DNA of 63,456 nucleotides, counting the filler, from Reclinomonas americana ATCC 50394 (taxonomy: Eukaryota), in the NCBI GenBank assembly GCA_048213135.1. It is 6 parts of 2 records of this genome, joined end to end, with 100 filler letters (N's around TTAATTAATTAA, not from the genome) between each part and the next. Parts side by side here need not be neighbours in the genome. Positions count along the whole stretch, not along the records: positions 1 to 18,507 come from PS015066.1; positions 18,608 to 34,163 come from PS015066.1; positions 34,264 to 41,943 come from PS015066.1; positions 42,044 to 44,999 come from PS015066.1; positions 45,100 to 58,154 come from PS015066.1; positions 58,255 to 63,456 come from PS015067.1. One strand, 5' to 3'. The position numbers were made by a program, and so were the translations under genes. A model generated the notes under the pieces. It saw only the letters and a program-made list of their open reading frames with translations, searched no databases and was not told where the DNA came from. Positions 103 to 62,147 of the stretch are shown here, in pieces (within the stretch, counting starts at the first letter, position 1; every line of letters starts with the position of its first letter).

Positions 103-1579
103 CTTCAAGGGCAGTGGCGAGGACTCGGTTGTTCTCTGCCTGCGCAGTCGCACATTCGAGGTCAAGGAGGTACATGCACGTTGATCAGTCTCTCCTCCTC
201 AATGCGTGCTACTGATTGTGTGGTCCAAGGTGGAGACGTCAAACACGCTGCTGTTTGTGTCGCCCGAGTCGGTGCAAGCAAGTGGATTCGATGTGATTCA
301 ACCGGAAGCTGACGCAACGGTTGGTGTGGCGTCACTGTCTGTCTCGCCCGCTCTCTTGTGACTCTGACGAGTGCGCAGCTGACGGTGAGCTTCTCGGCGG
401 GATCGTACTTGGAGCTGGTGGCCGCACTGCCACGGTTGCATCAGCTGCGGGAGTTGCTGCAGCGTGCGGCGTTTGCGGGCGAGGAGTCGGAGGTCGATGA
501 GGATGGGCAGCCGAGACCACTCGGCCACTCGTTGGAGGAGCTGGAGGATCGCGTGCAGGCCAGTCGTGATGAGATTCTGAGAGGGCTGCACGAGTTCCGA
601 GCGTTCAAGGTCAATGGTGAGGCCGCTCCCTTTCCCTCTCGCTCTCTCTTTGTCTCCTTCTCATCACTTGAGCACCTGCAGGCAAGTACCGCGTCTTTGA
701 GAGTGAGCATCTGGCCACCGTGTTCGACACGATTCTGGCCGACATTCTCGCCGCCAGTGGTGACATTGAGCGAGTGCGCTTGTCGGTGCTTCGTCTCGCC
801 ATCCCCGACATGAGCGACATTGATCTGGCCAACTGTCTCTACGTGTACGGCACTCCACACGATGCGGCGATCCAGTTGTTGCGTACTACGAAAGATGTGC
901 TGCTGCAGTCCTTTTGTACTCACGCGCCTCGTGTCACTGCAGCGACGAGGACTTTGATGCCACGAAGGTCGAGCTGTGGAAACTCGATCGGCGACTCATC
1001 TGTCGGCACAGAGCACTCGAGTTTCTCACTCTGCACGAGGTTGGCTCGCTGTCTCTCTGCTTCTCTTTGCCTTCCCTGTCACTCGTTTGCTCACTGCGCA
1101 CAGTCGTGGGGTCTCGAAGAGTTCATGCAAGTGTGGTCGGAGCAGATGCCCAGCTCGTGGAGAATACAACCGTCGTTGGACATGATTGCTGTTGCGTCGC
1201 GCATGGGTGCTTGGCTGGTGGCGATTCTCTTTCATCTCACCCCCTCATCAGGACATGATGGTGGTGATCACGCAAGGCCTGGACACGTACGTGCGATATG
1301 TGGACTCGGCGCAATTGCCGGTGACACTGAAGGCGCGCGTACGGCACCTCTTTGGCTTGAAGCCCAAGTGGAAGCTGGCCGAGTTGACCCCGTTTGTAAG
1401 GTGCGTGTGTGTGTCGCTGCACATGTCCTTCTGTCTTTTTCGTCCCGACCCACCCCAATCTTCCCGACCACAGAGAGCTCATTCCACCCAGTGTCAAGGT
1501 GGAGGAGAGCTTGCGCCCATTCGTTCGCATCCATGCCGACGAAGCCGACCCATCGCTGCTGTGGTTTACGTTGCGGTAA
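103..1579 (+). CDS. DCC1: Sister chromatid cohesion protein DCC1 (5'-partial, multi-exon)
   Basis: Spliced translation FKGSGEDSVVLCLRSRTFEVKE|VETSNTLL...LEELEDRVQASRDEILRGL...WGLEEFMQVW...LPVTLKARVRHLFGLKPKWKLAELTPFV matches recalled DCC1 motifs. Introns are GT-AG; stop TAA at 1577-1579. Confidence 0.85.
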
Positions 1580-1631
1580 AATATATGCTGATTCCTGTTT
1601 TTTCTGTATTACATGCCACCCACGCCGTTTG

Positions 1632-3548
1632 TCACCTTCGTCGCCGCATGCCGTCGTCACTGCTGTGAGTGCTGTTGTTGTGGCCGCCTCTACTCGTACT
1701 GCCGCTACGCAGTGATTGCAATGGTGGTGGTGGCGATGGTCGCCGCTGCTGGTGTTGCATGTCGGCGTCGTCGTCTCGCTTGAGGAGTGACGGGTTCCAC
1801 TGGACGCGCCACTCATCGACACACAGCTGCACTCGGCTCGTGTCCCACCCGGAAGCCGCCACGGCCTCGATGAAATCGTCCACCATGGCGCGATTCTCAA
1901 ACGCCTCGTCGGCAAACAGCTCGCCCTCTAGCGCGAATCGACGCAACAAGGCGTGCGTGTACGCCCGCAAATGGTCCAATGGCGTGGTGCCCTCCTCAAA
2001 CACCACGTATGCTGTCGGACCGCTCATGTCCACGGAGAGGAGCCAGCGGTGCTCCCGTGCCACACTTTCGCGCAGGCGATCCACGGTCAGGCGCACGCAG
2101 TACAGCGGCACACCGAGGTGGATGCGGAACGCAGACTCGTGCACGGCATCCCACCACCAAACGCTCTCGACTTTGGCCAACTCCGCCGGACGGGAGAGTG
2201 CCTTGCGTCGGCGGCTGCCGATGAACTCGCGCAGCAGCAGGGTGACGCGCTGGCGATTCAGCGATTCCAGCTGCCGTCAGCAAAAAGTCAGCAAAGGGGA
2301 AAGGGAGCAGGAGGTGCCTGTGGGACAGCACGATACGGCGCACCTGCAACACGCGAACCGCGCGGTAGTTGCAGAACAGATGCATCGCGACGAGTGCAAG
2401 AAACACCGCCCAACAAATCGCCGCGCTTTTCACAATGGCCGGCGTGACCAGTAGACCAACAGCGGAACCCACGAGTCCGACAGCAATCTCCTGTGAGCCA
2501 TCCTTGGCGCTCACCTACAAGCCACAAGCGGCATTAGACGATTCTCTTTCTCTCTTTCGCGCGCGCGAGCGTGTGGGTGATGGAGATGTTGCAATTATAG
2601 CGTACAGCGGACACAAAGCCCCACCACCAACGCAACATCGGCCATATTATGCGCGCGAGCCTGGTGTTGTGTGATGGCCGCGCGAGTGGCACCCCCCGCC
2701 ACATCGGTGACCGCCCGCACCAGCGCCGCCAGGCAAGTGCACGCGAAAAACCTGTGTTCGGAAAGAATCACCAAAGATGGACACACATGCATACGGGGGA
2801 AGGGCCACACACGGACCATGTTCTCCGTCCTTCGAAGAGCGCCCCACCCGCCAGCTCCACCAACATTGCCACATCGCACGCGATATCCGCCACCAACCGC
2901 CACGTTTTTGGGTTGGCGTCGAGGCCCGCCGACTGCACCCACCCAAACCAAATCTTCCCAATGCGTGAACAGCCGTCGCTGACAATCCACGACAAGGTGA
3001 CCGCCAAAGGCGTGCTGCTGGCGTCGCCCACGCCCACTCCTTTCAGCATCGCGTGTGTCGACAGAATGCCCGCCAGACAACTGCACAACGCCTGCATCGT
3101 GTCCCACTGCGGCGATATGCAAGTTAGAGTGAGCAAGAGGAGGAGGAAGTGGACATCGTCAGCCACGTCGTGTGCATGTGCGCGCCCCCCTCACCAACTG
3201 GTACTGCAAGTAGTCTGGAGACACGGAGTTGGGGAAGCCCGCTGGCAAGAAGCACGAGGCCACAAAGGCGGCCAGACGAGTGCGTGGGCGATCGAGCGAC
3301 GAGTGTTGGCGATCGGGTTGCACGCTGTGTGCGGGGAAGAGAGAGATGGGAGAGAGAGAGAGAAGGAGGGAGGAGAGCGTGGTGAGATCGGTTGGGCATG
3401 TCGCCAACGAGAACCGAGGCAACGTGTGTGTGAGTGCGTGTGTCAGTGAGTGTGTTTGTGTGCGCAACATCCGGTTGTCGGCCACAGCATAAGATCGTGT
3501 GTGGTGGGTAAGTGGCGATCGTTCACTGGCAACCACGTTTGCGTCCAT
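1632..3548 (-). CDS. RUS1: RUS1 family protein (root UVB sensitive, DUF647 / C16orf58-like)
   Basis: FLPAGFPNSVSPDYLQYQL|WDTMQALCS...GVGVG...LDANPKTWRLVAD...AGGATRAAITQHQARAHNMAD|VSAKDGSQE...HLFCNYRAVR...LNRQR are diagnostic RUS1 motifs; 5 introns modelled. Confidence 0.92.
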
Positions 3549-3884
3549 TGTGCAGGTCACGCACTCGCGCGTCACACAGAGTGAAAAAAGGAGAGCGCAG
3601 CTGCGCACACGCACACGACACTCAAAAAAGAACGAAACCGCAATTCCTCGACTCGAGGCAACTAGTTGATTTTTCCCTTTTCCTTCCACGCATGTGCGGG
3701 AATTGGAGTTGCCGCTCGAGGTGAGTGGTTATGCAATGCTGCGTCGAACACGAGACCACACCAGTTCCTTTTATACTCTCTCTCTCTCTCGCTTTCTTGC
3801 GTCTCCTCGCCACATCGACGAACTTTGAAAACACATCATCATCAAACAAACAGTACAAAAACACAACACGAACACCACACACAA

Positions 3885-60593: not shown

Positions 60594-60668
60594 ACGACGA
60601 AGAAACAAACGAAGAGAACACGACCACTCTACTCGTACACAGCAACATGAAGTAATAACAATACACCA

Positions 60669-61191
60669 TCATCTCCTCGCCGGCTCAAAGAGTCCCACCA
60701 TTTGCCCACACGGAGCACGAATGGCAGCCACCTGCATGCACAAACTACTGATAAGCGATACAGATGAGATGCCCAGTTGCCGCGCTCCCCCCTCCCGACC
60801 TTTCCATGATCCGGATGCTTGATGGGCCCATCCAGCACGCCACCATGCTGCAGAGCGGCGACCACCACCTTGTCGAGATCGCTCACATGCAACTTGAGAA
60901 ACGGCGAGTAGCCGTACGACAATTGCGATTCACTGTCGCCACGAGTGAGCACGCACACACGCACACACACACACACACACTCTCATGCTCACACCTTGCG
61001 CTCACTTGCAGCTCGACTACAGGTTGCATGTCGATCTCATCCTCTTCTCCTCCCTCTTCCGATGAAGACAACTGTGCCCATTGATCGGTCTGGCCCGTGA
61101 CGCGCAGGCCAAGTCCACGCGAGAAGAAGGCCACATGTGGCTCCAGAGGCGCGCGAACGAGCAAGAGGAGACTGTGCACACGCGACGCCAT
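60669..61191 (-). CDS. VOC / glyoxalase-like family protein
   Basis: VAFFSRGLGLRV...WAQL...GYSPFLKLHVSDLDKVV..ALQHGGVLDGPIKHPDHGK|VAAIRAPCGQMVGLFEP; 2 introns. Confidence 0.85.
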
Positions 61192-61284
61192 CGATTGAGT
61201 GGACAGTGGACAGACGCCGCTCGCGCTCCGGCATCTGTCCACTTTCACACACTCGCACGCACACAGTCAACATCGCCGTTCGCC

Positions 61285-62147
61285 ATGGTGAACGCGTTTA
61301 TGATGTTGCGTTTGTGTTGTGTTGGAGGAGGAAGAGAGGAAGAGAGCGTGATGCATGCACGCGCGTGTGCGCTTGTGTTTGTGTGTTGGAAATTGCGCGC
61401 TGTTTGTGTTTGAAACTCACACACACACTCTCTCTGCTCTTGCTCGTGCGCGCAGTGTGACCACCATTGTGGGAGTGAGTGGCTTCTTGCTGTCTCTGCG
61501 TGCGTGTGTGTGTGTGCACTCAACTCACACTCACACACGCGCATGTGCAACGTTAGGTCATTCTGATCCTGCTGGTGTCGGTCTACTTCCTCGTCTTCTT
61601 CAGCGCCGATGAGGACAAGAACATGGCGTGGTTACCAAAGGGCATTGTCGTTGCGTGCAATCACACTGAGAGAGAAAGAGATGGGGAAGAGAGAATTGAG
61701 AGGAGCACGCAATCACTTGTGTCGTTCTCTCTGCTCGTGTGTGCGTTGTGCAGAGTGTGTGTGTGTGTGCATGTGAGAGAGAATGTATATATATGCTCTC
61801 TTGATTGTCGCCTTCGCGTCAATGTGACACATTCTATTTATTTCGTCTGTGAGCTCGTGAACTGGCGCGCGCGCATCAGTTGCCAGAGTGTGTGTGTGTG
61901 TGTGTGCGTGCGTGTGTGTGTGTGTGTGTGTGCTTGTTCGTGTGTGTGTGAGTGTATGCACTCGCGTGTTGTGTTGTGTGGTAGTCGCATCAGTTGCCCT
62001 CTCTCTGTCATCTCACTCTCCCATCTTCTTCTCCCACAGATCATAGGATTGTCATTCGCCGCTTTCCTCGTCCTGGTGTTGCCACTCGATGTGGCCAATC
62101 GGTCCGTAAACGGCGGCTATAATATGCCGGCCTTGTGGCAGTTCTTG
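61285..62147 (+). CDS. LMBR1-like (LIMR family) membrane protein, 5' exons
   Basis: MVNAFMI|VTTIVG|VILILLVSVYFLVFFSADEDKNMAWLPKGIV|IIGLSFAAFLVLVLPLDVANR...LWQFL. Confidence 0.88.

Follow-up and report, generated by a model that had tools for sequence, protein, structure and literature searches.

Within a 63,456-nucleotide (nt) stretch of the Reclinomonas americana genome, hereafter the window, we find two classes of 5′ splice site (donor) side by side: an ordinary class, which can be written (G)|GU(G/A)(C/A)GU, and a second and apparently tightly defined class, [A/C/T]|GUU(G>U,A)CGU, which we term class 2 and which is most often seen in the DNA as GTTGCGT. The DNA of this window is the basis of every result that follows. 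The reading that we prefer, and hold at slightly better than even confidence, is that class 2 donors open genuine U2-type GT-AG introns that are read one base off register, with the G at +1 occupying the slot that is normally that of the last exon base, -1.

The initial annotation of the window had listed 28 donors of this kind, and all 28 coordinates do carry the heptamer reported for them on the strand given: GTTGCGT at 19 sites, GTTTCGT at three, GTTGCGA and GTTACGY at two each, and GTTGCGC and GTTGTGT at one each. Its statement that they are spread over five scaffolds was mistaken, as the window consists of six pieces separated by five linkers, and the listed sites fall on four of the six. 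Nor is GTTGCGT at background frequency in the window: counted on both strands it occurs 32 times, against a mean of 11.47 (standard deviation 3.08, maximum 20) in 100 dinucleotide-preserving shuffles of the window, none of which reaches 32, and each of its one-base variants is rarer (0–19 copies). Its orientation in the gene spans supported by Pfam matches (22,848 nt) is exclusively sense, with 15 copies in that direction and none antisense. The first CTNAY...YAG module downstream sets an intron length of at most 90 nt for 17 of the 32 GTTGCGT copies, compared with 1576 of 7865 (20%) of all GT heptamers (binomial p = 3e-5); the same rate is 34% for GTGCGT and 25% for GTGAGT. When the hexamers found 20–75 nt before 250 branch/acceptor modules are ranked, the donor-like words that come first are GTGCGT (23 copies in the zone, 67 elsewhere) and GTTGCG (17 in the zone, 44 elsewhere), with microsatellite and pyrimidine-rich words ranking above the donor-like ones. 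Unsupervised expectation-maximisation (EM) with three components, applied to GT candidates upstream of 221 modules, recovers a component '.tT|GTtGcgt' beside 'g|GTG.G' and (GT)n, although the component weights are inflated and are not taken as counts. The module, hexamer, EM and strand tests are all independent of reading frames, and we regard the GTTGCGT class, as an observation on this stretch of DNA, as confirmed.

The position of the cut was assessed by translating separately the exons on either side of a modelled intron and comparing their Pfam profile coordinates. Two class 2 introns give exact junctions by this test. At 18321 on the minus strand (GTTGCGA), exon 1 (18322-18507:-) matches the FYVE profile to position 24 and exon 2 (17999-18256:-) matches it from position 25, restoring RRR|HHCR; at 2636, also on the minus strand (GTTGCGT), exon 1 runs to position 164 of the RUS1 profile (UVB_sens_prot) and the second residue of exon 2 is position 166. 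Three ordinary donors behave equally well, namely GTGAGG at 3194 on the minus strand (RUS1, 33|34), GTGAGG at 617 on the plus strand (Dcc1, position 145, a split codon, then 147) and GTGAGT at 15735 on the plus strand (RCC1_2, position 15, a split codon, then 17), so that the RUS1 gene holds one validated intron from each donor class. Among the protein motifs by which the initial annotation had fixed its junctions, FYVE RRR|HHCR and RUS1 are therefore exact, but CCZ1 and LMBR1 are not decided by Pfam continuity, which is likewise indecisive for the DCC1, RCC1, S8 and Vps16 junctions. In the case of S8, alignments to solved subtilases contain a loop insertion of 6–9 residues, which prevents an exact test. 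For the 23 introns with an assigned phase, the length is not a multiple of three in 18 and there is an in-frame stop in nine, and the 15 nt flanking each of the 28 sites in both directions contain no consensus donor in frame. Profile continuity in FYVE and RUS1 fixes the cut directly before the G of GTT.

Apart from its GU, the 5′ splice site is conserved most strongly at two positions, +5 and -1, both of them G. To set class 2 against the ordinary introns of the same DNA, we took as the ordinary set 44 introns with GT[AG]NG donors from the Viterbi gene model described below, each having a branch motif, a YAG end, a length of at most 160 nt and no microsatellite; the donor score of this gene finder is blind to exon bases. 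G is present at -1 in none of the 28 class 2 sites and in 26 of the 44 ordinary ones (Fisher p = 4e-8), and it precedes only one of the 32 copies of GTTGCGT (p = 3e-4). The bases that class 2 does have at -1 (T12, A10, C6, G0) resemble those at -2 of ordinary introns (A15, T15, C9, G5). Scored under the ordinary exon-end matrix, the class 2 exon flank reaches +30.1 when shifted by one, +19.7 of this coming from the G itself, and -17.3 when left unshifted. On the intron side, the counts among the 28 are T+3 28, G+4 23, C+5 27, G+6 28 and T+7 24, so that +3 to +7 of class 2 correspond to +2 to +6 of the consensus seen locally (ordinary T2 G3 C/A4 G5 T6). The ordinary donors are themselves less strict than this (G3 in 38 of 44, C4 in 21 or A4 in 16, T6 in 26); they include 14 GTGAG and 18 GTGCG, with GTGCGT the commonest hexamer. 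GTTGAGT is present five times in the window with a single branch/acceptor module, as against 17 modules within 100 nt for the 32 copies of GTTGCGT. Thus the proposal that each class 2 variant equals an ordinary donor with an extra T holds for CG-type donors but was too broad, since GTTGAGT is essentially unused.

Away from the donor, the two classes are built alike. All 28 class 2 introns start with GT and all end with AG, the latter because the models were built to do so. Both classes use CTCAC more than any other branch motif (16/28 in class 2, 18/44 in ordinary), the branch A lies a median of 20 nt from the 3′ end in class 2 and of 18.5 nt in ordinary introns, and C occupies acceptor position -3 in 24/28 and 40/44 respectively, with C or T there in 27 of the 28 class 2 introns. 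Class 2 lengths are 57–82 nt in 20 of the 28. The U12-type donor [AG]TATCCTT is found at none of the 28 sites, the U12 branch consensus not having been searched separately. The further claim, that this lineage uses two donor registers, is supported by our results: class 2 introns appear to be of U2 type and share the branch motif, branch distance, acceptor and length of their ordinary neighbours. Taken as a whole, the initial interpretation is borne out in part.

As for the share of introns that begin in this way, a fair range is roughly 17–25%, with which the initial count of 28 among roughly 100 introns is compatible, though it could not be rigorously repeated. Run with equal bonuses for the two classes, a two-strand Viterbi gene finder called 133 introns, some of them spurious, of which 23 had CG-type GTT donors, and it failed to find 11 of the 28 listed sites; the same gene finder with no bonus for the class recovered only four of the 28 and lost 24. 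Codon bias in the window is weak, third-position GC being ~65%. Four other approaches were dropped or set aside. Flat-donor ab initio modelling picked arbitrary in-frame GT sites and recovered five of the 28, enrichment of k-mers, measured against an order-3 Markov model, gave too weak a signal for scoring donors, and a 90-nt codon-score frame test failed on ordinary donors too. A census based on open reading frame (ORF) consistency let decoys and real motifs through at equal rates, and because it could not tell the decoys apart it yields no rigorous share for class 2. Gene predictors trained on one donor matrix will mis-model class 2 introns, and annotations of the Reclinomonas americana genome and those of its relatives may consequently hold systematic frame errors.

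If the off-register reading that we prefer is right, early recognition would read a class 2 site one base out of step: G+1 would replace the exon-end G at -1, U+2 would sit in the slot of G+1, and U+3 to U+7 would stand for +2 to +6 of GUGCGU, while the catalytic step would still use the resulting GU. The motif recognised would be (D)G-G-U-G-C-G-U, with U tolerated in place of the second G as long as all else is kept, and the cut would be made before the first G. With one position of the motif spoiled, the remainder would have to be near-perfect, and this would explain the near-invariant U3 G4 C5 G6 U7. By analogy with the shifted register known from human sites, the offset would arise in U1 or another early reader of the 5′ splice site and would be resolved by U6/U5.

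A number of points weigh against this reading. Junctions are fixed to the residue at only two of the 28 listed sites, and the ordinary set, coming as it does from an imperfect gene finder, may include false introns. Predicted duplexes with the canonical U1 end AUACUUACCUG, in the form given by Tan et al. 2016, have a mean energy of -0.66 kcal/mol for class 2, compared with -2.95 kcal/mol for 1500 random GT sites and -6.04 kcal/mol for ordinary donors (the U1 ends used in these calculations are assumed, and may differ from the one that Reclinomonas americana itself has). Right-hand pairs in this canonical duplex form only in register 10, at 14 of the 28 sites. Given instead the U1 end ACGUAC, which has G opposite +4, all 28 sites pair in the shifted register, at -4.65 against -4.14 for random sites. 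Furthermore, A at +5 is what a canonical U1 pairing in the shifted register ought to favour, whereas there is virtually no use of GTTGAGT; the restriction of class 2 to CG-type donors speaks for a bulge instead, or for some other cause.

That restriction would follow more readily if U1, and later U6, kept its normal register and the extra U+3 were either bulged or enlarged the loop made by C+4 of GUGCGU. A T-extended form would then be available only to donors whose middle is unpaired with U1 (C opposite pseudouridine), which is consistent with the single module found for the five copies of GTTGAGT, and bulge and loop registers are proven for single human sites in the portion of Tan et al. 2016 (PMC4856993) available to us. 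However, the G at -1 would under these circumstances still pair with C9 and ought to be at least as strongly preferred as in ordinary donors, whereas it is found in 0/28 against 26/44; it is because of this absence that we favour a shift over a simple bulge. Folding with canonical U1 also never picked the register-9 left helix for class 2. A bulge or enlarged loop is, in our judgement, possible without being probable. The poor predicted pairing to the canonical U1 end means that a variant small nuclear RNA (snRNA), or a route assisted by protein, has to be kept in view. Such a dedicated reader, whether a variant U1, U6 or other snRNA complementary to GUUGCGU or a protein, would amount to two parallel recognition modes within the major spliceosome, and would suit a class that pairs with canonical U1 worse than random GT sites do (-0.66 against -2.95 kcal/mol) and yet is major and very uniform. 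Co-evolved U1 ends are described, in the portion of Roy and Bowser (bioRxiv 10.1101/2022.06.08.495308) available to us, for Entamoeba (AACAAAC) and as a candidate for Mastigamoeba (ACGUAC, with G opposite C at +4), but by the same partial text Thecamonas and Mamiellales also prefer C at +4 while having standard U1 ends. Moreover, the variant with G opposite +4 does not by itself lift class 2 clearly above random sites, and Rfam finds no snRNA gene in the window, giving no match at the gathering threshold and, at E <= 1, only two chance microRNA-like matches. We consider a dedicated reader rather unlikely. A broader proposition, in which two parallel modes of donor recognition exist, a fifth to a quarter of introns pass through a dedicated GUUGCGU reader (a second U1-like RNA, an altered U6 or a protein), and the registers of recognition and cleavage lie one nucleotide apart as a rule, is offered tentatively, as something that could be so but probably is not.

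Three remaining explanations do away with an unusual register. The introns might be of GC-AG type and start three bases later, GTT|GCGT, the GTT being exonic: GC stands at +4/+5 in 22 of the 28 sites, a shift of 3 nt keeps the frame, and at 1191 on the plus strand, where 12 residues face 13 profile positions of Dcc1, one extra residue would fit. The FYVE and RUS1 profile coordinates leave no room for it, however, and the residue would be inserted into RRHHCR; GTT is invariant across all three phases, unlike coding sequence; GTTTCGT (three sites) and GTTACGY (two sites) have neither GC nor GT at +4/+5; and the words [ACT]TTGCGT together reach only 19 copies, fewer than the 32 of GTTGCGT. Splicing at the nearby GC, which the initial annotation had named as a way in which the class might fail, thus appears very unlikely in view of the invariant GTT, the five sites lacking GC and the FYVE and RUS1 coordinates. 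It might also be supposed that mis-modelled genes, heptamers present by chance or single bases inserted into GTGCGT by sequencing error account for much of the class, given the weak codon bias (third-position GC ~65%), ab initio models so unreliable that a flat-donor parse finds five of 28 sites, ORF-consistency filters that pass decoys as often as real motifs, and five of the 28 sites that have neither phase nor homology behind them. Yet enrichment, sense-only orientation, association with modules and de novo EM all single out the heptamer without reference to frame, two junctions are exact, and sequencing insertions would inherit the 59% of G at -1 seen in ordinary donors where 0/28 is found. 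We therefore think it unlikely that the class is an artefact. The last explanation, suggested by the identical seven-base start of so many introns, is that they are copies of a proliferating introner-type element carrying its own 5′ end. A blastn-short comparison of 72 intron interiors gave 48 non-self matches and revealed no family, the 20 matches listed being overlapping models of one locus, microsatellites or one paralogous WD40 pair, and the bases past +7 are variable; to this explanation we give almost no credence.

Turning to the individual sites, 18 of those listed have, beyond the two with exact junctions, the standard short-intron build with a length of 57–82 nt, and among all 28 a CTNAY motif is present in 25 and a YAG end in 27. 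The donor is GTTGCGT in the following account unless another heptamer is given. The DCC1-like gene on the plus strand contains the intron 878..942 (phase 2, 65 nt), with an ACTCAC branch motif and a CTGCAG acceptor, and the intron 1191..1251 (phase 0, 61 nt), at which the Dcc1 profile reaches ~270 upstream and resumes at ~272 downstream by extrapolation, which is not decisive. Between these, 1040-1103 is likely to be a 64-nt intron of the same DCC1-like gene, GAG|GTTGGC; it has T at +3, and its retention of G at both +5 and -1 would place it in the ordinary register, unlike the GTT-N-CG class. Introns 878..942 and 1040-1103 together keep the Pfam Dcc1 frames consistent. On the minus strand, the exact junction in the RUS1/DUF647 gene belongs to the intron 2515..2636 (phase 0, 122 nt), and 3325..3468 is a putative intron (GTTGCGC, 144 nt) with CTCAC, a long pyrimidine tract and a CACAG acceptor.

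The RhoGEF-PH-RCC1 gene on the plus strand contains the intron 12916..12989 (phase 2, 74 nt), whose downstream exon matches the PH profile from 22–24. It is followed on the same strand by 13323..13391 (GTTTCGT, phase 2, 69 nt), for which neither GT nor GC offers an in-frame alternative in the 15 nt to either side, by 13558..13625 (phase 0, 68 nt), by 14191..14272 (phase 1, 82 nt), which precedes the first RCC1 repeat, by 14429..14493 (phase 1, 65 nt), which lies within the RCC1 repeats and has RCC1 matches on both exons that are not decisive because repeat length varies, and by 16792..16858 (phase 1, 67 nt). The exact junction in the RCC1-FYVE gene is that of 18257..18321 on the minus strand (GTTGCGA, phase 0, 65 nt).

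All of the next group are on the minus strand. Two introns, 19037..19166 (phase 2, 130 nt) and 19688..19750 (GTTGCGA, phase 2, 63 nt), contain in-frame stops. Putative introns are 18823..18899 (77 nt), 21763..21833 (GTTACGC, 71 nt), 31076..31263 (188 nt) and 21255..21449, whose acceptor is uncertain, the sole module found ending in GAG; together with 3468, the sites at 18899, 21449, 21833 and 31263 are those with no assigned phase and no homology support. Six of the listed GTT donors fall within a single very large and intron-dense gene at 23278-32212, in which Peptidase_S8 is found together with numerous teneurin-like EGF repeats, an H-type lectin domain and a DSL-like match. The introns 27480..27544 (phase 2, 65 nt), which contains an in-frame stop and is assigned to this subtilase-EGF gene, and 27797..27867 (phase 2, 71 nt) are of this stretch, as are 23860..23926 (GTTTCGT, phase 1, 67 nt) and 29746..29815 (GTTTCGT, phase 2, 70 nt), neither of which has an in-frame alternative donor. 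Intron 28763..28825 (GTTACGT, phase 2, 63 nt) lies within Peptidase_S8, with S8 matches on both exons that a lineage-specific loop insertion keeps from being exact. Intron 33747..33822 (phase 2, 76 nt) again contains an in-frame stop.

The remaining listed sites are on the plus strand. In the CCZ1-like gene, the intron 42855..43671 (phase 0, 817 nt) takes its acceptor from the LFHG reading and has Longin-domain matches nearby; its 817-nt length is the least certain part of the model. In the Vps16 gene, the upstream exon of 58797..58853 (phase 0, 57 nt) matches Vps16_C to ~126, and this intron would be 199 nt long instead if the next small exon were skipped. The neighbouring site, 58935..58995 (GTTGTGT, 61 nt), is ambiguous, having an in-frame GT donor 3 nt downstream, and the 27-residue exon upstream of it might be skipped altogether. 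The LMBR1-like gene contributes 61305..61455 (phase 2, 151 nt), with an in-frame stop, and 61650..62039 (phase 0, 390 nt), whose downstream exon matches LMBR1 39–62 from its second residue.

Thirteen copies of GTTGCGT lie outside the listed set, and those at 41668, 22245 and 62957 look like further donors. For the first of these a likely class 2 intron can be drawn at 41602..41668 on the minus strand (67 nt), with a CTAAC branch motif, an ATACAG acceptor and an open frame on both sides. The copy at 26754 falls in a 3′ pyrimidine tract. The copy at 59188 was ruled out as a donor, being out of frame, and the Vps16_C frame requires AG|GTGTGT at 59184; here the upstream and Vps16_C frames allow only a 78-nt intron, 59184..59261 on the plus strand, of ordinary appearance. 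The plus-strand sequence at 59184-59194 is GTGTGTTGCGT, so that GTTGCGT occupies +5 to +11 of an intron with an ordinary donor.

The window itself has a GC content of ~55%, and its genes are built of short exons with introns mainly of 55–90 nt and a strong CTCAC/CTGAC/CTAAY motif ~19 nt upstream of the CAG at the intron end. Its six pieces are joined by five linkers of the form N44-TTAATTAATTAA-N44, at 18508-18607, 34164-34263, 41944-42043, 45000-45099 and 58155-58254, with stops in all six frames; as the joins are artificial, no gene can span them, and further assembly gaps are present. Pfam identifies pieces of Dcc1, RUS1/DUF647, RhoGEF-PH-RCC1, RCC1-FYVE, Vps16 and LMBR1 genes, several WD40 arrays, CCZ1-type longin domains and the large gene with subtilase, EGF (teneurin-like) and H-lectin domains. 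Homologue searches with the Vps16 fragment and with the S8 exon gave no match, the E-value threshold being too strict in the latter case for a query of 97 residues, and a metagenome scan with the RUS1 exon gave 151 pattern matches, none of them confirmed.

Several other features of the window are recorded here. The DNA is very rich in (GA)n/(CT)n and (GT)n microsatellites, which are often intronic, TCTCTCT occurring 351 times and GTGTGTG 183 times on the two strands. The longest stop-free frames, at 19853-21298 on the minus strand (481 codons) and 7252-9270 on the plus strand (672 codons), have no Pfam match; the former translates to S/L/P-rich low-complexity sequence, and in DNA as GC-rich as this long open frames do not count as evidence for coding. 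The piece 45100-58154 carries, on its plus strand, paralogous WD40-array genes at 45100-45546, 47846-48883, 51021-52052 and 53985-54716, for which a search with a WD40 exon found as best database relatives generic WD40 arrays of bacterial and fungal type. Near-identical intron 3′ ends, 'GAGAGGAGGCGAG(C/T)CTCACGA(C/T)(G/A)CAG', occur in this piece at ~47190, 50367 and 53530. The N-terminus of LMBR1 (profile 39–62) is on the plus strand at 61285-62201 and LMBR1 129–201 is on the minus strand at 62819-63367, the two parts being separated by an N gap at 62204-62805 (602 N). This strand switch reflects either a contig inverted within the scaffold or two converging LMBR1 genes.

To our knowledge, off-register recognition has so far been documented only for scattered human sites. 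What would be novel here is that an off-register 5′ splice site should make up a large and uniform class, and new in its particulars are the lack of G at -1, the limitation to CG-type donors, the need for C+5, G+6 and T+7, and the poor fit to the canonical U1 end. Should RNA data confirm it, this would be an unusually common off-register splice signal and, if the reading is true, a natural setting in which to learn at what step (U1, U6 or U5/Prp8) the position of cleavage is set; it would also reveal how much mismatch the early complex tolerates and whether snRNAs co-evolve with an off-register donor class. No such class was found in literature on the heptamer in connection with splicing or introns, where the 20 papers listed out of 838 look like incidental matches to the sequence, on two donor classes in protists or on shifted registers across lineages, though subscription papers or the genome paper could hold one.

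Among known systems, GC-AG and U12-type introns are likewise minority donor classes with their own consensus, from which class 2 differs in starting with GT and in having an ordinary branch and acceptor. The preference for C at +4 (GUGCGY) described for Mastigamoeba balamuthi, Mamiellales and Thecamonas trahens in the available part of Roy and Bowser (bioRxiv 10.1101/2022.06.08.495308), according to which the 5′ splice site and the U1 end can co-evolve, has its counterpart in the ordinary donors of the window, 21 of 44 of which have C at +4; neither GUUGCG nor a bulge or shifted class came up when that text was searched for such terms. In the portion available of a paper on tunicates (PMC13326754), a shifted register is raised only as a possibility. 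The STAT3 Delta-3 tandem donors, with their non-canonical U1/U6 registers (PMC11162779, seen in part), resemble 58935 (GTTGTGT) and 59184 (GTGTGTTGCGT) in having two GTs a few bases apart, but these are single alternative sites and the likeness does not extend to class 2 as a whole. Closer are the bulge +3 (or +2) and asymmetric-loop 1 (+3/+4) U1 registers described for human sites in the accessible part of Tan et al. 2016 (PMC4856993), which, like class 2, have one extra nucleotide between the GU and a downstream paired block of GU type. The limitation of class 2 to donors with an unpaired middle would fit an enlarged loop, whereas these human registers, as far as that part of the text goes, belong to single sites and keep the -1G:C9 pair, G at -1 being absent from class 2 (0/28). 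Closest of all in outline are the human shifted-register sites of GUUAAGU type (Roca and Krainer 2009, as cited in Tan et al. 2016, PMC4856993, in the part available). There, as would be the case in class 2, the cut is made at the GU at +1/+2, U stands at +3, the consensus lies one base downstream with G at +6, and G+1 takes the -1 slot. The human type has A where class 2 requires C at +5, and class 2 differs again in its negligible predicted pairing to canonical U1 and in being known here from genomic sequence only. Above all, the human shifted sites in that account are rare and individual, whereas class 2 appears as a fixed heptamer in roughly a fifth to a quarter of introns.

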